Below are positions 119-7,754 of a DNA stretch of 12,383 nt, piece by piece. Position 1 is the stretch's first letter; the number at the start of each line of letters is the position of its first letter. The notes beneath the pieces were generated by a model. The model did no database searches. It was not told the origin of the DNA and saw only the letters and a program-made list of their open reading frames with translations. Source of the stretch: a virus; the UHGV virus genome UHGV-1630673. The stretch is one strand, 5' to 3'. Both the position numbers and the translations under genes were made by a program.

Positions 119-1339
119 ATGTACCAGAAAAAATCGGCTGACGATCAGCCACAAAGTATTGGTGAAATCTCCTCCCAGCTCACCATGGTGATTGATCAGG
201 TCAAAAACTTCGGCGAAGACGTGAAGAGAAAAATGGAGGCAGGAGAAACCGTTTCGCTGGAACTGAAACAAAGAACGGACGAAAGCCTTAATCAGATGAA
301 CGAGCTGAAAGAACGTCTCACTGAGCTGGAGCAAAAAGGTGCACGCCGCCCGAACGATGCACCTGCACAGCGAAAATCGCTCGGTGAGCTGGTGGTCGAA
401 AGTGAAGAGTTCAAAGGCATGGACAGTTCGGCCCGTAAGAGCATCCGCGTCAAGCTGGAACAGAAAGATATTATGAACGTGCCGGCGACTACGGGCACTG
501 GCGTGAGCGCAACAAACAGTCTGGTTGTATCCGATCGTGTTCAGGGCATTATCGCACCACCGGAACGCACTCTTACCATCCGTAACCTGCTGATCCCCGG
601 TAATACTGCATCCAACGGTATTGAATTCGTTCAGGAAACGGGGTTTACCAATAATGCTGCAGCTGTGGCGGAAGGTGCCCTCAAGCCAAAATCAGACATT
701 AAGTTTGAGCTGAAAAGTGCGCCGGTACGTACCATTGCGCATTATTTTAAAGCGTCCCGTCAGATCCTGGACGATGCGCCCGGTCTGGCCAGTTATATCG
801 ATGGCCGTGCTCAGTATGGTCTTCGCTTTAAAGAGGAGCAGCAGTTGCTGAGCGGCGATGGCACCGGCGCGAATATCCTCGGTATTCTGCCGCAGGCAAC
901 AGAATTTGCTCCAGCGCTTACCCTGTCCAACGCCACGCCGATCGACCGTCTTCGCCTGGCTGTTCTGCAGGCCGTTCTTGCAGAATATCCGGCGTCTGGT
1001 TTTGTACTGAACCCGATTGACTGGGCAGGCATCGAGTTGACCAAAGATAACGAAGGCCGCTACATCATTGCGCAGCCGGTCAATGGTGGTGTTCCACGTA
1101 TCTGGGGGCTTCCTGTTGTGGAAACTCAGGCTATGGCGCAGAACAACTTCCTGACTGGAGCCTTCAACATGGCTGCGCAAATCTTCGATCGCATGGATAT
1201 CGAAGTGCTGCTCTCCACTGAGAACGAAGATGACTTTATTAAAAACATGGTCACCATTCGTGCGGAAGAGCGTCTGGCATTAGCAGTTTATCGTCCGGAA
1301 GCATTTGTCACCGGTAATGTAACCGCTTCTGGCGGCTGA
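119..1339 (+). CDS. Major capsid protein, HK97-fold, with N-terminal delta (scaffold-like) domain
   Basis: 406-aa ORF with AAGGGA Shine-Dalgarno 108-113, 5 nt before ATG 119. The first ~100 residues are charged and coiled-coil-like (ISSQLTMVIDQVKNFGEDVKRKMEAGE...LKERLTELEQKG), typical of the HK97 gp5 delta domain; the remainder has the size and character of HK97-family capsid proteins. High GC, followed by a hairpin terminator. Confidence 0.88.
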   Translation: MYQKKSADDQPQSIGEISSQLTMVIDQVKNFGEDVKRKMEAGETVSLELKQRTDESLNQMNELKERLTELEQKGARRPNDAPAQRKSLGELVVESEEFKGMDSSARKSIRVKLEQKDIMNVPATTGTGVSATNSLVVSDRVQGIIAPPERTLTIRNLLIPGNTASNGIEFVQETGFTNNAAAVAEGALKPKSDIKFELKSAPVRTIAHYFKASRQILDDAPGLASYIDGRAQYGLRFKEEQQLLSGDGTGANILGILPQATEFAPALTLSNATPIDRLRLAVLQAVLAEYPASGFVLNPIDWAGIELTKDNEGRYIIAQPVNGGVPRIWGLPVVETQAMAQNNFLTGAFNMAAQIFDRMDIEVLLSTENEDDFIKNMVTIRAEERLALAVYRPEAFVTGNVTASGG

Positions 1340-1346
1340 CAATTCA

Positions 1347-1372
1347 GGGCCGCTTAGCGGCCCTCTCTTTCT
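1347..1372 (+). terminator. Intrinsic terminator-like hairpin after the capsid gene (probably partial/attenuating)
   Basis: Perfect 7-bp GC stem GGGCCGC (1347-1353), loop TTA, GCGGCCC (1357-1363), followed by a pyrimidine/T-rich tract TCTCTTTCT (1364-1372). The T tract is interrupted by C, so termination is probably incomplete. Confidence 0.5.
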
Positions 1373-1384
1373 GAGGAGATTGTG

Positions 1385-1639
1385 ATGGCCAGAAAAAATG
1401 TGGCTGAACCGTCTGTATCCGACGGTAAAAATGTGGCGCCAGAACCCTCTGAGTCCGGGACTATTCAGGTTCAGCCTGTCCGGCGTTTTATGGATGGCGA
1501 CATTTTCAGGACGCCTGCCGATGATCCTTTTCATGTCTCTCGCTTACGTGCTGCCGAGCTCAAAGGTAACGGGCTGGTGACGATAGTTGGTGAAGTCCCT
1601 GATAACAAAATGAACCGCGCCCCCGAAACCAAAGGGTAA
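1385..1639 (+). CDS. Small head-module protein of unknown function (84 aa)
   Basis: GAGGAG Shine-Dalgarno 1373-1378, 6 nt before ATG 1385 (the ORF track begins at GTG 1382). Stop TAA 1637-1639 overlaps the next start ATG 1639 (TAATG coupling). No family recognised. Confidence 0.6.
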   Translation: MARKNVAEPSVSDGKNVAPEPSESGTIQVQPVRRFMDGDIFRTPADDPFHVSRLRAAELKGNGLVTIVGEVPDNKMNRAPETKG

Positions 1640-1977
1640 TGGTTATGACGGTAATCAACACTGAAACAGCCATGGAACATCTCAGGCTGGATGATGAAAT
1701 CGATAAAACGATGGTGGAGGGGTATCTTGCCGCTGCGGAGGATGCTGCTATGCAGTTTCTTAACCGACGCTTTTTTGCTGACCAGGCCGCGCTGGATAAC
1801 GCAATTGAAAATGAAGGCGCCGGCGATCGCCCAATTATTATCACGCCCTCTATTCAGAGTGCGGTTCTTCTTATACTGGGCTGGCTATATGAAAACCGTG
1901 GGGATGACCTGGGTCATGATATCCCTGGCCCTGCGCGTTGGTTGCTTAATCCCTATCGCATCGATATGGGGGTATAA
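1639..1977 (+). CDS. Head-tail connector protein (phage gp6-like family)
   Basis: 112-aa ORF; N-terminal segment TAMEHLRLDDEIDKTMVEGYLAAAEDAAMQFLNRR matches the characteristic N-terminal pattern of gp6-like head-tail connector proteins. Position after capsid is consistent. Translationally coupled to the upstream ORF. Confidence 0.75.
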   Translation: MVMTVINTETAMEHLRLDDEIDKTMVEGYLAAAEDAAMQFLNRRFFADQAALDNAIENEGAGDRPIIITPSIQSAVLLILGWLYENRGDDLGHDIPGPARWLLNPYRIDMGV

Positions 1978-2042
1978 AAATATGGCCTGCGAAGGGTGCC
2001 GCCGTCGGCGTGAATGGTTAAAAAAGTGGACGAAAATTGCCT

Positions 2043-2240
2043 ATGAACGAGCAACAGGTAAACGCGCTGATAGCAGCGCTGAGCGAACAAACAGCAGCAC
2101 AGAGAGAGCAGACGGAAGCGATAAACCGCCTGGCTGAATCAAACATGGCTCTGTGTGATGTGATCATTCAGTCTCTGGCCGGTGAAGAGGATGTGCAGGC
2201 AGAGCCGAAAACCTATCTCAGCGGAAAACCCAGGGGGTGA
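2043..2240 (+). CDS. Small hypothetical protein (65 aa)
   Basis: ORF in the 265-bp gap between connector and head-tail joining genes; protein MNEQQVNALIAALSEQTAAQREQTEAINRLAESNMALCDVIIQSLAGEEDVQ... looks like a real helical protein. Stop 2238-2240 abuts the next start 2242. Shine-Dalgarno is weak (GTGGA 2026-2030); the ORF track starts at TTG 2037. Confidence 0.45.
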   Translation: MNEQQVNALIAALSEQTAAQREQTEAINRLAESNMALCDVIIQSLAGEEDVQAEPKTYLSGKPRG

Positions 2241-2241
2241 T

Positions 2242-2574
2242 ATGCAGGCCGGGAAATTGCGTCACAGGGTTATCCTGCAGGAGCCGGTAAAAGAGCAGAG
2301 CCCGACAACGGGCGCCGTAATCAATACCTGGCGCGATGTCGCAACCATCTGGGCCGAAATCTCCCCCTTATCTGCGCGGGAGTTTATCGCGGCCCAGGCA
2401 TCACAGGGCGAGATAACAACGCGTATAACGATTCGCTACCGGGCGGGCGTCACCAGAAAGCACAGGATTCTGTATCGCGATGGCATTTACAACATTGAAG
2501 GCGTTTTACCAGACCCGCGCAGCGGCAGGGAGTATCTGACGCTGCCCTGCTCAGAAGGGGTGAATGATGGCTGA
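2242..2574 (+). CDS. Head-tail joining / head closure protein (110 aa)
   Basis: GGGGGTGA upstream of ATG 2242. Protein MQAGKLRHRVILQEP...IWAEISPLSAREFIAAQA...ITIRYRAGVTRKHRILYRDGIYNIEGVLPDPRSGREYLTLPCSEG shows the typical pattern of phage head-tail joining proteins (GKLRHRV..LQ, RYR, Y.I..V.D..GR.E.L.L.C.E). Stop overlaps the next gene. Confidence 0.75.
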   Translation: MQAGKLRHRVILQEPVKEQSPTTGAVINTWRDVATIWAEISPLSAREFIAAQASQGEITTRITIRYRAGVTRKHRILYRDGIYNIEGVLPDPRSGREYLTLPCSEGVNDG

Positions 2575-3106
2575 TGGTGTAGAGGTTAACCTTACCGGGC
2601 TTGAGTCGGTGCTGGGCAAGATGGATGCTGTCTCACAGGTGACCCGCAATAAAACCGGGCGTGCAGCGCTGCGTAAAGCAGCAAACGTCATCCGGGACAG
2701 GGCCCGCAGTAATGCCGCTCGTGTTGATGACTTTCTTACTAAAGAAGCCATCTATAAAAATATTGTCGTCAGTTTCAGCAGCAAAGCCTTTCGCAGAACG
2801 GGCGACCCAACCTTTCGTGTAGGGGTAATGGGCGGAGCAAGGCAATATGCCAATACAAAGGCCAATGTGCGAAAAGGCAGGGCGGGTAAAAGTTATAATA
2901 CAGCCGGAGATAAAGGCAATCCCGGTGGTGATACCTGGTACTGGCGATTTCTGGAATTCGGGACCGAGCATATGGCTGCGAGGCCAATACTACGCCCGGC
3001 AATGAATGGCGTGGATACTGACGTAATTAATATTTTCGCTGTGGAACTGGAAAAGGCTATCGATCGTGCCGTCCGTAGCGCAGCCAAAAAAGGAACGTCC
3101 GTATGA
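2567..3106 (+). CDS. HK97 gp10-like tail component protein (179 aa)
   Basis: Contains WYWRFLEFGTEHMAARPILRPA, a close match to the conserved FLEFGT...ARPF(L)RPA signature of HK97 gp10-family proteins. Start ATG 2567 (track 2564, tandem ATGs) overlaps the upstream stop at 2572-2574. Confidence 0.75.
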   Translation: MADGVEVNLTGLESVLGKMDAVSQVTRNKTGRAALRKAANVIRDRARSNAARVDDFLTKEAIYKNIVVSFSSKAFRRTGDPTFRVGVMGGARQYANTKANVRKGRAGKSYNTAGDKGNPGGDTWYWRFLEFGTEHMAARPILRPAMNGVDTDVINIFAVELEKAIDRAVRSAAKKGTSV

Positions 3107-3468
3107 TAGCTCCAATATTCTCTGTCTGCGCGGCAAGCCAGGCTGTAAAGGATTTATTGGGTACCAACCCCGTCAGGCTCTATCCCTTCGGGATACAGGA
3201 TGACAATATCGTTTACCCCTACGCGGTCTGGCAAAACATTGGCGGCTCTCCTGAAAATTACCTGAACCAGCGGCCAGATGCTGATCACTACTCTCTTCAG
3301 GTTGATGTTTATGGTGATACCGATGCAGATGTAATTGCCGTGGCCCACGCATTGCGTGATGCCATCGAAGGGAAAGCCTATATTACCCGGTGGGGAGAGC
3401 AAAGCCGTAATGATTCCACGATGAAATACCGCTATTCCTTCGATGTTGACTGGATCGCGTCCAGGTAA
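3103..3468 (+). CDS. Tail completion / tail terminator-like protein (121 aa, DUF3168-like pattern)
   Basis: AGGAA Shine-Dalgarno 3091-3095; ATG 3103 overlaps the upstream stop (ATGA). N-terminal pattern SQAVKDLLGTNPVRLYPFGIQDDNIVYPYAVWQ resembles tail completion proteins encoded immediately upstream of major tail genes. The family call is tentative. Confidence 0.6.
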   Translation: MIAPIFSVCAASQAVKDLLGTNPVRLYPFGIQDDNIVYPYAVWQNIGGSPENYLNQRPDADHYSLQVDVYGDTDADVIAVAHALRDAIEGKAYITRWGEQSRNDSTMKYRYSFDVDWIASR

Positions 3469-3486: not shown

Positions 3487-3512
3487 CCCGCTTTGAGCGG
3501 GTTTTTCTATTT
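3487..3512 (+). terminator. Intrinsic terminator-like hairpin upstream of the major tail gene
   Basis: CCCGC (3487-3491), loop TTTGA, GCGGG (3497-3501), followed by TTTTTCTATTT (3502-3512). It sits between the tail completion gene stop (3468) and the major tail Shine-Dalgarno GGAGA (3515-3519). Confidence 0.5.
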
Positions 3513-3525
3513 ATGGAGACTAAAA

Positions 3526-4017
3526 ATGTCTGTATTAACGCAAGGCACACAGTTCTTTGTTCTGAAATCTGGCGTGGTCAGCGAGGTTGAATGTATCACT
3601 AGCTTCAATCCCGGCGGCAACCCCGCCGATCAGATTGAAGATACCTGCCTGAGTGAACGGGATTCCAGAACCTACAAAAAAGGTCTGAAAACGCCAGCGG
3701 CTGCAACTGTCGGGCTCAATGCTGACCCGACGAACGCCAGCCACATCATGCTACATGGCCTTGCAGAAGCTAATGACCAGGCGTCATTAACTTTTGCCGT
3801 TGGCTGGTCAGATGGCACCAGCGTTCCGACCGTTGCCGCTTCCGGCGATGAAGATGCTGTTGATGGTCTGGTGCTTCCATCTGATCGCACCTGGTTTATT
3901 TTCCAGGGCTATGTTTCCGATTTTCCATTCGATTTTCAGGGCAATGCGGTTGTGACGACCTCTGCCACCATTCAGCGCTCGGGCTCTTCAGTATGGGTTC
4001 CGAAAGCCGCCGCGTAA
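3526..4017 (+). CDS. Major tail (tail tube) protein (163 aa)
   Basis: GGAGA Shine-Dalgarno 6 nt before ATG 3526 (track start 3493 is a TTG inside the terminator). Its position immediately before the chaperone G/GT pair, its size, and motif resemblance to lambda gpV N-domain-like tube proteins ([12 protein letters not shown]..., [10 protein letters not shown]..., [11 protein letters not shown]) support the call. Hairpins flank the gene on both sides. Confidence 0.75.
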
Positions 4018-4060: not shown

Positions 4061-4444
4061 ATGCAGCTTACTCTCGATACGTTAAAAGAAACCGGGGCAT
4101 TCACTGGCCGCCCGGTAGAGAAAGAAATCAAATGGAAAGGTCGTGACGGGCAAGAACATATTGCAACCGTCTTTGTACGTCCTATGGGCTACCACACCAC
4201 TAAAGCTGAACTGCTGGCGTATAACGGCAAATCAGATCCGGTGGCTGGGCGTATTGCCGCCCATATCTGTGATGAGGAAGGCAAGCAAATCTTCACCGAG
4301 GCGGACATTCTCGGAACTGCATCTGAAGACCGTGGTGCACTTGATGGCCCGATTGTTATTGCCTTGCTGACCGTAATTCAGGGAGTCAACGAGCTGGGAA
4401 AGACTACGAACTCACAGGAGAAGACGAGTTCTGGTGTGAGTTAG
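4061..4444 (+). CDS. Tail assembly chaperone (lambda gpG-like), zero-frame product (127 aa)
   Basis: AGGAG Shine-Dalgarno 4051-4055 and ATG 4061. Position between major tail and tape measure genes. Contains an in-frame slippery heptamer near its 3' end; stop TAG 4442-4444. Confidence 0.8.
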   Translation: MQLTLDTLKETGAFTGRPVEKEIKWKGRDGQEHIATVFVRPMGYHTTKAELLAYNGKSDPVAGRIAAHICDEEGKQIFTEADILGTASEDRGALDGPIVIALLTVIQGVNELGKTTNSQEKTSSGVS

Positions 4445-4710
4445 TCATGAACGGCATTGGCGGGAGAACGATCGAGGAGGCTCAGGAGCGAATGAGCCTC
4501 CGTGAGTTTCAGATATGGGTAAAGTACCGCAATAAGTATGGTCAGCTTAACAACATGATGCGAACCGAGTGGGGGGCCTCGATGGTCGCTTCTGTTCTGG
4601 CGAACATCAATAAGGCGAAGAACACGCCTACTTATAAGGTCAGTGACTTTGCGCCCCATATCAATGAATCCCCTTTGTCGCTTCAAGATGCCATGAAAAA
4701 TTGGCACTGA
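4061..4710 (+). CDS. Tail assembly chaperone G-T fusion made by -1 frameshift at 4396-4402 (predicted ~216 aa)
   Basis: The -1 frame downstream of the slip site encodes DYELTGEDEFWCELVMNGIGGRTIEEAQERMSLREFQIWVKYRNKYGQL...ASVLANINKAK..., resembling the lambda gpT-like domain pattern. The T-frame ATG at 4447 has no Shine-Dalgarno, consistent with expression only as a fusion. Confidence 0.75.
4396..4402 (+). other. Programmed -1 ribosomal frameshift slippery heptamer G GGA AAG
   Basis: GGGAAAG at 4396-4402 lies in the G reading frame as G|GGA|AAG (codons 113-114 = Gly-Lys), the same heptamer and phasing as the phage lambda G/GT shift site. The -1 frame is open from 4402 to TGA 4708-4710, with no stop across the junction. 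Confidence 0.8.
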
Positions 4711-4773
4711 TAACTGTTAAATGCAGTGCAGGATCACTATCATCAGTAAACTAATAACTACTGGGATAGGGAT

Positions 4774-5151
4774 ATGAAAAAGTTAATTTTCGCTTTAGTA
4801 CTTGGCGCATCCGCTTTAACAATTACTGGCTGCGCCCCAACAGTCCAGAAAATCGACTACAACCAGAAATCTATGCTTCTATCTCTTGGGATGAGCAAAA
4901 ACGATGTTATGCAGATTATGGGATCGCCTAGAAGGACTGATGTTAACCCAGAGCGCGAACGCTGGATTTATTGGAATAAGTCTCTATACGGCTACACTAT
5001 TATCGATAACGAACAATTAGCTAATGATCGACTAGTTGTTACGTTTGTAAGCGGGAAAGTGGCTAAGTGGGGCCAACAAACATTGGCTGATGATGTCATG
5101 GAATCATCACAAAAAACCGCCCAAGCTTATGCCGAGGCACTTAAAAAATAG
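4774..5151 (+). CDS. Moron: predicted outer-membrane lipoprotein with BamE (SmpA/OmlA)-like motif pattern (125 aa)
   Basis: N-terminus MKKLIFALVLGASALTITGC is a signal peptide with lipobox ITG|C; residue +2 is Ala, so outer-membrane sorting is predicted. Mature part LSLGMSKNDVMQIMGSPRR...ERWIYWNK...LVVTFVSGKVAKW follows the BamE-like pattern (GM[ST]..V...G[ST]P...W.Y...[LV]TF..GK[LV]). The gene is clearly AT-rich relative to the head genes and is followed by a strong intrinsic terminator. Confidence 0.8.
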   Translation: MKKLIFALVLGASALTITGCAPTVQKIDYNQKSMLLSLGMSKNDVMQIMGSPRRTDVNPERERWIYWNKSLYGYTIIDNEQLANDRLVVTFVSGKVAKWGQQTLADDVMESSQKTAQAYAEALKK

Positions 5152-5172
5152 TCGCTTAAATTAAATTATGAA

Positions 5173-5195
5173 CCTCGCCTCGGCGGGGTTTTTTT
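5173..5195 (+). terminator. Intrinsic terminator after the lipoprotein moron
   Basis: CCTCG (5173-5177) pairs with CGGGG (5184-5188) (5 bp including one G-U pair, 6-nt loop), followed by seven T residues (5189-5195). Confidence 0.6.
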
Positions 5196-5213
5196 ATGCC
5201 TGGAGAAAACTTA

Positions 5214-7754
5214 ATGGCTGGAAAATCCCTTGGTACATTAACAATTGACCTGATAGCAAAAGTAGGCGGATTTGTTCAGGGGATGGATAAGGCTGAAAGG
5301 TCGTCCCAAAAATGGCGCGATCAGGTAAAAAAAGACGCTAAAGAGGTTGGGGCATCCCTGGCTGCTATTGGCGTAGCAGCAGCTACTGCTGCCGTTGGAA
5401 TTGGCATTGCTGGTCTGGCGATTGTAAAAAACACCGCTCAGCAGGTAACTGAGGCTGACAGGTGGGCAAAATCATTAAAAATGTCCACTCAAGATTTATT
5501 ATCCTGGCAATACGCAGCTGAACAAGCCGGTTTAACTGGCGATAATATTGCAGATATTTTTAAAGATATTAACGATAAAGTCGGCGATGCGGTTCTGAAC
5601 AAATCAGGTGAGGCTGCTCAGGCACTGGATACTCTCGGGCTTTCAGCTCAGAAGTTGGCCCAGCAATCCCCTGACAAGCAACTGATGGCTATCAGTGGAG
5701 CATTACAGAAAATCCCCTCTCAGGCCGGGAAAACCAATATCCTCGAAAGTCTGGGTAATGACCTGTCAAAAATGTTGCCGTTGTTCGATAACAATAACGA
5801 GAAATTGAAGCAATTTATCCAGTTGTCAAAAGATTTTGGTGTCGCACCTCCCCAGGAAGATATTGATAATCTGGTTAAAGTTAATCAGTTCTTTCAGGAT
5901 ATCGAGACCAGCGCGCGCGGCATGAGGATGGAAATTGCATCAGGTCTAGCAAAAATTGATCTGTCACCTTTGCAGGATGGGCTGGATGATATTCGAGACG
6001 TATTTACTGATCCTGCTGTTCTTCAGGGTATTTCGGACCTTGTAGGTGAGGCAATCAGTCTTGCAGGAGTGGTTGGCCGAATAGCTGGTGGTTTGGGAGC
6101 TATCGCATCCTATACACGCTCTCGCGTTGGTGCCGTATCAGGGAATTACGATGCTTCCGATCTAAACGACGTAGAACAGCGTATTGAATTCCTGAACAAG
6201 AGAGGTAACCAGAGTAAGGAACAAAAAGAAGAGTTAGATTTTTTAAACAAGCGCCGTGATTTTTTGCAAGCAATCAAAGGATCGATACTCACCCCAGAAG
6301 AATCACAAAGGGCCGCGAAGGGGATGCAGTCCTTGCTTTCTGACATGGACATAGAGCCGAACACCACTGATAATTATAATCTTGGTAAAGATGAATCGAA
6401 CCAGAAGCAAACTGCTAAGAAAAACCCAACTGATAACGCATTCAAAAGTAGATTACTAGACTTACAGAAACAAGCTGCACTTATTGAAACTACTGGTAAA
6501 AAAACAGCTGAAGTTACAGAGCTTGAAAAAATAAATTTTGATATTGCCAGTGGGAACCTGAAAAAATTATCTGAGGATCAAAAAGAACAGCTTCGTATTG
6601 CTGCAAAAACACTTGACTCTAAAAAAGAAGAACTGCGACTTAACCAAGAGAATGCAAAGGTTGCAGAATATATTTCCGGTTTAACAAGGCAAAACAAGCT
6701 TGTCCGACAGGGATATGATAACGAAATTATGGGTCTTTCTTTGGGAAGTAAGGACCGTGGCAGAATGCGAGAGTTAAATGGCATTCAGCAGGATTTCGAA
6801 TCGAGACAAGAGGAACTTTTAAATCAACTTCAGTCTGGTGATATTGATAATAGTTTATATGATAAAAAGAAAGAGGCGTTAAAGGATGCACTTAAAGAAC
6901 GCTTGCAAATACAGGAAAGTTATTATCAGGAGTCAGATGATTTACAAAGTGATTGGCAATCTGGCATCTCAAGTTCATTAGCTGACTTTGCTGACATTTC
7001 TAGTGATTACTACCAGCAAGCAGCTAATGCGATGACATCGATACTGGGTTCAGCTACTGATTCCATCTCTGAGCATTTATATAATGTTATCGATGGTACC
7101 GAGTCGATGGGAGAAGCTATAAAAGGTATTTTTGCAGATCTTGGTGAATCTGTGATTCAAGCTCTTGTCGATATGGCTGCTCAATGGATTGTGTACCAGG
7201 GTGTCCAAATGCTGGTTAACAAATCAGTACAGGCCTCTGCTATTCCTGCAATGATTGCTAATGCACAGGCTACTGCATTACAGGGTCAACTTGCCGCTTT
7301 TGCTTCAACCGCCGCAATACCAATAGTTGGGCCTGCAATGGCTCCAGCAGCCATGGCTGCTGCCGCTGCTGTAACGCAACCAATGGTTGCTGCTATATCC
7401 GTCGCTTCAATATCAGGTATGGCGCATGATGGCATTGACTCAGTACCAAAAACAGGAACCTGGCTCCTACAGGAAGGTGAACGAGTTACCACAGCTAAAA
7501 CCAGTGCAAAGTTGGATGCTACGTTGGATCGGGTAGCGAACCAGTCAACCGGCGGTGGCGCTATCTATGCCCCAAATATCACCATTCCTATCAATGGCAA
7601 TCCTTCAGATGCCACATTGTCGCTGGTACGTAAGGCGGCTGATGAGGGGGCTGAGCGCGGATATCGGAAAGCTGTTAACTCCATAGCCAGCGGGCAGGGT
7701 GATTTGCACAAGGTATTAATGGGGAAAACAAACTCGGGGAGGAAAATTGGCTGA
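5214..7754 (+). CDS. Tail tape measure protein (~846 aa)
   Basis: Longest gene of the tail module, immediately after the chaperone pair. Features: N-terminal hydrophobic segment (LAAIGVAAATAAVGIGIAGLAIV), long charged helical centre, and Ala/Gly-rich hydrophobic C-terminal region (AAFASTAAIPIVGPAMAPAAMAAAAAVTQPMVAAISVAS). GGAG 5202-5205 is 8 nt before ATG 5214; the track start ATG 5196 sits directly on the terminator T-run with no Shine-Dalgarno. Confidence 0.85.
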   Translation: MAGKSLGTLTIDLIAKVGGFVQGMDKAERSSQKWRDQVKKDAKEVGASLAAIGVAAATAAVGIGIAGLAIVKNTAQQVTEADRWAKSLKMSTQDLLSWQYAAEQAGLTGDNIADIFKDINDKVGDAVLNKSGEAAQALDTLGLSAQKLAQQSPDKQLMAISGALQKIPSQAGKTNILESLGNDLSKMLPLFDNNNEKLKQFIQLSKDFGVAPPQEDIDNLVKVNQFFQDIETSARGMRMEIASGLAKIDLSPLQDGLDDIRDVFTDPAVLQGISDLVGEAISLAGVVGRIAGGLGAIASYTRSRVGAVSGNYDASDLNDVEQRIEFLNKRGNQSKEQKEELDFLNKRRDFLQAIKGSILTPEESQRAAKGMQSLLSDMDIEPNTTDNYNLGKDESNQKQTAKKNPTDNAFKSRLLDLQKQAALIETTGKKTAEVTELEKINFDIASGNLKKLSEDQKEQLRIAAKTLDSKKEELRLNQENAKVAEYISGLTRQNKLVRQGYDNEIMGLSLGSKDRGRMRELNGIQQDFESRQEELLNQLQSGDIDNSLYDKKKEALKDALKERLQIQESYYQESDDLQSDWQSGISSSLADFADISSDYYQQAANAMTSILGSATDSISEHLYNVIDGTESMGEAIKGIFADLGESVIQALVDMAAQWIVYQGVQMLVNKSVQASAIPAMIANAQATALQGQLAAFASTAAIPIVGPAMAPAAMAAAAAVTQPMVAAISVASISGMAHDGIDSVPKTGTWLLQEGERVTTAKTSAKLDATLDRVANQSTGGGAIYAPNITIPINGNPSDATLSLVRKAADEGAERGYRKAVNSIASGQGDLHKVLMGKTNSGRKIG

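Follow-up and report, generated by a model that had tools for sequence, protein, structure and literature searches.

The locus at positions 4,061 to 4,710 of a stretch of DNA from the virus genome UHGV-1630673 raises the question of how two tail assembly domains that lie in different reading frames around a single GGGAAAG heptamer are expressed. Below, the whole stretch of DNA that was analysed (12,383 nucleotides) is referred to as the window. A first-pass annotation of this DNA proposed that a -1 frameshift of the lambda type gives rise to a G-T tail chaperone fusion; every element of that interpretation held up in the sequence comparisons described here, and the underlying coordinates and sequence statements all proved to be correct. 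With a probability of about 93%, we read the locus as one at which an HK022-like siphophage or prophage uses a programmed -1 ribosomal shift to extend its tail assembly chaperone. The features on which the analysis draws are listed in Table 1.

Table 1. Features of the window that bear on the expression of the G and T frames (coordinates refer to the whole stretch).
Feature	Coordinates	Strand	Basis or remark
HK97-fold capsid protein, connector, head completion protein, HK97-gp10-like protein, gp17-like tail completion protein	119-3468
Major tail tube protein gene	3493..4017	+	Pfam Phage_TTP_11 (PF16460), E 3e-66; phrog_158 major tail protein
G-type tail assembly chaperone ORF, 127 aa, zero-frame product	4061..4444	+	Pfam Phage_TAC_13; phrog_1749
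SD-like AGGGAG, candidate stimulator	4380..4385	+	10 nt 5' of the heptamer
Slippery heptamer GGGAAAG	4396..4402	+	Phased G GGA AAG; predicted -1 shift site
T segment, -1 frame, 102 codons and TGA stop	4402..4710	+	Pfam Phage_tail_T; phrog_337; third-position periodicity
Hairpin of 8+4 bp, candidate stimulator	4409..4442	+	6 nt 3' of the heptamer; MFE about -14 kcal/mol
In-frame ATG inside the T segment	4447..4449	+	Used as the 'T' start by annotation pipelines
Lipoprotein gene, 125 aa, BamE-like domain	4774-5151		Between T and the tape measure gene
Tail length tape measure protein gene	5196..7754	+	phrog_2854, E 3e-291; Pfam Tape_meas_lam_C
Minor tail proteins and gpJ-like tip protein	downstream of 7754

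The G/T pair is flanked by the tail tube and tape measure genes. The order in the window is tail tube gene, tail assembly chaperone, T domain in the -1 frame and tape measure gene, with one extra gene inserted between the last two. The G/GT frameshift is described as widely conserved among long-tailed phages in the same tube, chaperone, T and tape measure layout (PMC5009743), in line with the remark in the first-pass annotation that a conserved frameshift at this position is an established feature of the tail assembly genes of tailed phages. The tail tube gene is listed with a TTG start that has no Shine-Dalgarno (SD) sequence, and relatives annotate a protein of 163-167 aa; translation may really begin at an ATG inside the ORF.

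The interval between T and the tape measure gene has a variable content of its own. DNA similarity to the relatives ends at the T stop, and in the window the lipoprotein gene that occupies the interval has behind it, at 5170-5191, a hairpin and T-run that resemble a terminator. Among 234 related loci, this slot is empty in 93 and contains one small ORF in 140; the ORFs belong to approximately 16 unrelated families (a few small ones of which look spurious), mostly predicted lipoproteins, secreted or membrane proteins. The pattern suggests that the slot is a hotspot within the tail operon at which accessory genes ('morons') are exchanged.

The upstream ORF, interpreted from the outset as a tail chaperone, matches Phage_TAC_13 (PF16459) with an E value of 3e-30 and 104.8 bits (cut-off 28.8), and the phrog_1749 tail assembly chaperone family with an E value of 2e-47; it is preceded by an AGGAG SD sequence with a predicted duplex energy of -6.9 kcal/mol. 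Among the matches listed, the proteins nearest to G come from Klebsiella michiganensis (96% identity) and from Klebsiella and Raoultella species. The -1 frame is open from 4345, reads GAC TAC GAA ... GTC ATG from 4402 (peptide DYELTGEDEFWCELVMNGIGG...) and is closed by the TGA at 4708-4710, so that the open frame across the junction described in the first-pass annotation is there, with 102 codons from 4402 onwards. This segment matches Phage_tail_T (PF06223) with 32.6 bits (cut-off 25.9; E value 1e-7) and phrog_337 with an E value of 9e-25; the T protein of lambda scores 54.1 bits on the same Pfam model, in support of the proposed assignment of the downstream domain to the gpT family. A sequence search of the PDB with the 216-aa fusion predicted below returned no match at E values up to 1.

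The heptamer consists of codons 113-114 of the 127-codon G ORF together with the last base of codon 112. Since position 4396 is a third codon position in the ORF 4061-4444 [(4396-4061) mod 3 = 2], GGGAAAG has the form X XXY YYZ with the phase CTG GGA AAG, and the surrounding sequence reads ...GTC AAC GAG CTG GGA AAG ACT ACG.... This is the form that tandem -1 re-pairing requires. The phase is also exactly that of the lambda G/GT site, as originally claimed: lambda (J02459) reads GCG GGA AAG in its G frame. Past the heptamer, the zero frame runs on through 13 further codons (TTNSQEKTSSGVS) before it meets the TAG at 4442-4444, so that 14 codons separate the heptamer from the end of the G ORF.

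By itself, the heptamer is weak evidence because in-phase heptamers of the generic XXXYYYZ form turn up often: the forward genes of the window, 3885 codons in total, contain 19, and 44% of the codon shuffles of G contain at least one. A heptamer of the X_XXA_AAG type is in phase in only 5% of these shuffles. GGGAAAG at 4396 is the only one of the 19 that is followed by a long -1 ORF (102 codons); for the other 18, the -1 frame extends over 29 codons or fewer. In bacteria, X_XXA_AAG is the type of heptamer with a high efficiency. According to PMC5009743, ribosomes of E. coli are highly prone to shift on G_GGA_AAG.

In the mechanism that we propose, the majority of ribosomes would translate the G ORF to its stop and produce the 127-aa chaperone. 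In a minority, tRNA-Gly in the P site (on GGA) and tRNA-Lys in the A site (on AAG) would slip one base back to GGG AAA, and decoding would resume at GAC (4402) in the -1 frame and proceed to 4710, yielding a 216-aa G-T fusion. This predicted GT protein, join(4061..4402, 4402..4710), would combine G residues 1-114 with 102 T residues; its junction, ...NELGK/DYELTGEDEF, is the one given in the first-pass annotation, with the junction peptide NELGKDYELTGEDEF, which becomes DYELTGEDEFWCELVMNGIGGR after trypsin. By analogy with lambda, we infer that the shift occurs, that its rate may be close to the few per cent of lambda and that the two products act as chaperones: G and the G part of GT would coat the tape measure protein, the T domain would recruit the tail tube protein, and both G and GT would be absent from the finished virion.

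To assess the conservation of the site, we compared the window with related loci. The close set consisted of 84 loci, namely two annotated phage loci (L001 and L002), 80 IMG/VR contigs and two Rosenbergiella prophages (at least two Rosenbergiella loci came from a scan of genome contigs), with G identity to the window of 60-96%. In all 84, the heptamer is found at the identical offset and is followed by a -1 ORF of 102-106 codons. For the wider set, these were joined by prophages of Salmonella, Pantoea and Serratia and by loci from two more IMG/VR scans. Among the 235 loci that were scored automatically, the heptamer is GGGAAAG in 228 and GGGAAAA in 7; with four more loci examined by hand, an in-phase heptamer and a long -1 ORF are present in 239 of 239 analysable loci, down to approximately 55-65% G identity, and the phages HK022 and D3, which were checked separately, have the identical layout. 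The length of the -1 ORF is 98-108 codons in these loci, with one of 123. The zero-frame tail past the heptamer, by comparison, ranges from 3 to 48 codons in 72 distinct sequences: the G stop shifts by up to 45 codons among the relatives, and the heptamer never moves. At the level of sequence, we regard this conservation in all 239 relatives as the decisive evidence for a shift site.

The same counts bear on the suggestion that the split is a sequencing error, a frameshift mutation in a former single G-T gene, or a chance heptamer followed by a remnant. The abundance of generic in-phase heptamers, both in the window and in the shuffles of G, speaks for such an origin, as does the existence of a few database proteins that resemble in-frame fusions. 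Those apparent fusions are, however, frame-scrambled singletons or a deletion variant. Among the 120 matches listed from a collection of 5.8 billion proteins, three (P0001, P0040 and P0015) reach beyond the G part, and none is a genuine annotated full-length G-T fusion: we rejected P0001 and P0040 as frame-scrambled reads, and P0015 as a deletion variant on a 2-kb contig. An artefact or a decaying gene would, moreover, have to account for the same two-frame layout in 239 independent loci from several genera, and for purifying selection that acts on each frame on its own side of the heptamer. We consider this origin to be scarcely credible.

The pattern of substitutions points to the heptamer as the place where the selected frame changes. 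In a set of 71 distinct close G-T sequences, the heptamer and the ATG at 4447 enclose 45 nt, which contain 3, 0 and 12 variable columns at codon positions 1, 2 and 3, respectively, of the -1 frame; read in the G frame, the same columns are distributed 0, 12 and 3, an implausible excess at the second position. Across 91 distinct junctions, the column entropy upstream of the heptamer is 0.44, 0.29 and 1.26 bits at the three positions of the zero frame, and downstream of it 0.46, 0.40 and 1.04 bits at the three positions of the -1 frame. This flip of the periodicity from the zero to the -1 frame indicates that the coding frame under selection switches at the heptamer, 45 nt ahead of any start codon, and argues that the -1 frame encodes protein right from the shift site, and not only from an internal start. 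A lack of conservation of the downstream frame in relatives had been named in the first-pass annotation as an outcome that would speak against the frameshift; the frame is conserved, with purifying selection detectable upstream of the ATG at 4447.

These observations also weigh on the main translational alternative, namely that T has a start of its own at the ATG at 4447, reached through translational coupling or reinitiation beyond the G stop (4442-4444), and that the heptamer is incidental. The stop and the ATG are indeed only 2 nt apart (TAGTCATG), and GenBank and PGAP records of close relatives list a separate protein of 87 aa, named 'tail protein' or 'phage tail assembly protein T'. This ATG is the earliest ATG, GTG or TTG after the preceding stop in the -1 frame. 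However, the strongest pairing with the anti-SD in the sequence ahead of it has an energy of only -2.8 kcal/mol (G, -6.9 kcal/mol; 12 of the 14 other listed starts in the window, -4.5 to -11 kcal/mol). The remark in the first-pass annotation that this ATG has no SD sequence is thus confirmed in the sense that the SD is weak, and the fate of the codon in relatives is more telling. In at least 128 relatives, that is, more than half, Met 4447 is replaced by a Leu codon, and no other start is available before the middle of the T domain: in the Rosenbergiella locus L084, CTT stands in place of the ATG, and in those of Salmonella, Pantoea and Serratia the -1 frame has no Met before residue 40-52, which is already within the T domain. 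Because Met 4447 is Leu in most relatives and the next Met is inside the T domain, it appears from these alignments that a complete T domain can be produced only as a G-T fusion, by ribosomes coming from G. A separate start is further at odds with the -1-frame periodicity of the 15 codons ahead of the ATG, with a G stop that is mobile by up to 45 codons while the heptamer stays fixed, and with the retention of the heptamer in 239 of 239 loci. We therefore consider independent translation of T to be very unlikely, and the ATG at 4447 is probably an internal Met codon only; some termination-reinitiation may make a minor contribution in the clade of the window by yielding a free 87-aa T.

The records of the closest relatives are also where the practical value of a programmed frameshift at this locus lies. 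In GenBank and PGAP, G and the 87-aa second piece are separate genes with no join; phage records use 'tail protein' or 'hypothetical protein' as names for them, and in PGAP the second is a 'phage tail assembly protein T'. The missing join is an annotation gap and not a biological novelty. The appropriate annotation would be a joined CDS, 4061..4402 + 4402..4710, encoding the 216-aa GT alongside the 127-aa G.

A change of frame by -1 could, in principle, also be made in the RNA, by slippage of the polymerase on a run of A or G, with no part played by the ribosome. The outcome, a GT fusion, would be identical, and sequence comparison cannot tell the two apart. The homopolymer runs at the site are, however, merely 3 nt long, and the strict X XXY YYZ phasing, which is needed for tandem tRNA re-pairing, is irrelevant to a polymerase. 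In bacteria, slippage is known from runs of approximately 9 A or T (PMC5009743), and the shift rate in lambda responds to the modification of tRNA-Lys, specifically to the thiolation of tRNA-Lys(UUU) (PMC3296357). Slippage of the polymerase is accordingly a most improbable source of the fusion, and a shift made by the ribosome remains by far the preferred reading.

Two elements flanking the heptamer were considered as possible stimulators of this ribosomal shift. A point of comparison is the E. coli dnaX cassette, which consists of an SD-like element, an A AAA AAG heptamer and a 3' stem-loop; approximately 50% of ribosomes shift there, and the product is truncated. In the window, an SD-like AGGGAG happens to stand 10 nt ahead of an X XXA AAG heptamer, and a hairpin starts 6 nt behind it. 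Unlike in dnaX, these flanks are not conserved in the family, and the stability of the hairpin does not exceed that of synonymous recodings that encode the same peptide; the shift in the window would also extend the protein, whereas the dnaX shift truncates it.

The hairpin at 4409-4442 is common to the entire clade with a 127-aa G and is missing in the clade with a 117-aa G, in Rosenbergiella and in Serratia. Its stem arises largely from two Glu-Leu dipeptides in ELTGEDEFWCEL, GAG CTC being self-complementary. No covariation above that of shuffles was found across nine diverse junctions (75% of cells paired, one compensatory pair). When each junction was compared with 200 synonymous recodings that keep the T-frame peptide, the stability of the hairpin gave z = -0.19 in the window and a family mean of z = -0.05 over 109 distinct junctions; thus, the window provides no sign of a selected stem-loop of the dnaX type 5-9 nt past the heptamer. 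Hairpins of the HK022/Pantoea type are more stable (-22 to -25 kcal/mol, z approximately -2), and only some clades clearly exceed the recodings. Given its loss in clades, the lack of covariation and the z value of -0.19, we rejected the hairpin of the window as a selected element; it may contribute functionally to the shift.

The upstream AGGGAG motif would pair with the anti-SD at -7.7 kcal/mol, a value that about 4% of background windows match or surpass. SD-like stimulators of -1 shifts have a spacing of 9-14 nt (PMC5009743), a range that includes the 10 nt between AGGGAG and the heptamer. In relatives, the corresponding region spans +0.3 to -11 kcal/mol; AGGGAG is specific to the window and is confounded with Gln-Gly/Glu codons, and on these grounds we make no claim for it as a stimulator. 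The heptamer itself appears to be the sole conserved signal at the site, as in lambda. It is unlikely, in our judgement, that AGGGAG and the hairpin are acquired, dnaX-like stimulators that raise the shift rate well above the few per cent of lambda. If they were, the lineage of the window would build its tails at a different G:GT ratio, and this ratio might be tuned clade by clade via RNA structure, for example, in loci of the HK022/Pantoea type.

Comparison with characterized phages places the locus in a known group. When the 114-aa G part was used as a tblastn query against phage records, HK022, HK140, mEp235 and mEpX2 were found at 66% identity and the Pseudomonas phages D3 and PMG1 at 64%. 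HK022 gp13 is 65.8% identical to the window over the whole 114-residue G part, and a global alignment of the two GT proteins contains 129 identical residues out of 216 (60%). In HK022, GGGAAAG is at the aligned position, in an (N/D)LGK context (following ...DLGK in HK022 and ...ELGK within ...NELGK in the window), and is followed by a -1 ORF of 107 codons, compared with 102 in the window, that ends exactly where the joined CDS of the HK022 record ends. In that record (GenBank AF069308), gp13 has 161 aa, and gp14 is a two-piece joined CDS described as the presumed downstream part of a translational frameshift product. The neighbours are those of the window as well, with genes for the HK97-gp10-like, gp17-like tail completion, Phage_TTP_11 tail tube and tape measure proteins. 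The differences are limited to the zero-frame product (161 aa in HK022, with a 48-codon tail past the heptamer, versus 127 aa in the window), a Leu in HK022 at the position of Met 4447, and the tape measure gene, which directly follows T in HK022, whereas the lipoprotein gene lies between the two in the window.

The relationship to lambda is more distant. The lambda G/GT locus, described in the work of Levin et al. 1993 and Xu et al. 2004, 2013 and 2014 (as reviewed in PMC5009743), shares with the window the heptamer and its phase, G GGA AAG, the location between the tail tube and tape measure genes, and the Pfam family of the T domain. The G proteins belong to different families (PF06894 in lambda, PF16459 in the window), and BLASTP detected no pairwise similarity between the window G and lambda G or between the T segment and lambda T, so that the kinship of the T domains rests on the Pfam profile. 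The zero frame ends 5 codons after the heptamer in lambda and 13 in the window, and lambda T overlaps H directly, with no gene between them, whereas the window has one. In lambda, approximately 4% of ribosomes shift and approximately 96% keep the zero frame (PMC3296357). According to PMC5009743, tail assembly in lambda depends on a G:GT ratio of approximately 30:1; the tape measure protein is the binding partner of G and of the G part of GT, the tube protein is that of T, and the virion contains neither G nor GT. The same mechanism, with a similarly low percentage of shifting ribosomes, is expected in the window.

Judged by sequence identity, the closest characterized homologue of the locus is therefore HK022 gp13/gp14 rather than lambda G/T. 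The feature is a member of a characterized and annotated orthologue group and, as such, is already known: it adds one more case of a recoding event that is among the most widely conserved in tailed phages, in a family whose HK022 homologue is already annotated as a frameshift.

The interval between the T stop (the end of the -1-frame segment that follows the tail assembly chaperone gene G) and the start of the tape measure gene is a cargo slot that varies among related loci. We compared this slot, the counterpart of positions 4711-5195 of the window, in the loci L001-L242: in 93 of 234 related loci it is empty, with T followed directly by the tape measure gene, and in 140 of the 234 it is occupied by a single small ORF. 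The ORFs from these 140 loci group into approximately 16 sequence families that are unrelated to one another, a few minor ones being apparently spurious, such as one that is a broken tape measure gene. The majority of the families consist of predicted lipoproteins (with lipoboxes of several types), of proteins with a signal peptide or of membrane proteins. In the window, DNA similarity to the relatives ceases at the T stop, and the slot ORF that follows encodes a predicted lipoprotein with the lipobox LTITG|C and a match to Pfam BamE (E 1.5e-5). The slots of 16 loci, among them that of a Serratia prophage (L088), again hold a member of this BamE-like family.

Features of the interval that separates T from the tape measure gene
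Feature	Position	Evidence or context
Predicted lipoprotein gene, 125 aa	4774-5151 (ORF; within interval 4711-5195)	Lipobox, Pfam BamE, phrog_18614
Terminator-like GC hairpin and T-run	5170-5191	3' of ORF 4774-5151

The terminator-like hairpin lies 5 nt ahead of the tape measure ATG; upstream of the lipoprotein ORF, a consensus scan detected no sigma-70-like promoter. The mechanically listed start of the tail tube ORF is TTG 3493. Because this TTG lacks a Shine-Dalgarno sequence (duplex +0.7 kcal/mol) and the protein is annotated as 163-167 aa in relatives versus 174 aa from the TTG, the true start is probably a downstream ATG, the stretch concerned being 3493-3530.

Three database proteins, P0001, P0040 and P0015, match the predicted G-T fusion beyond its G part. 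The first two were rejected as natural fusions, being frame-scrambled translations from error-prone assemblies, and so was P0015, a 158-aa deletion variant from a 2-kb contig in which G is joined to the T C-terminus. A natural in-frame G-T gene is unsupported by any of the three.

RNA structure following the slippery heptamer differs between clades. In the HK022/Pantoea-type clade with a 161-aa G (L087, L243, which is HK022 itself, and relatives), folding of the counterpart of window positions 4403-4455 yields a much stronger hairpin just 3' of the heptamer (-22 to -25 kcal/mol), with stability about 2 SD beyond that of synonymous recodings, whereas in the Serratia and Klebsiella clades with a 117-aa G, the structure falls below that of their own synonymous recodings (z +1.4 to +2). 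This contrast in hairpin stability suggests that frameshift efficiency might be tuned clade by clade.
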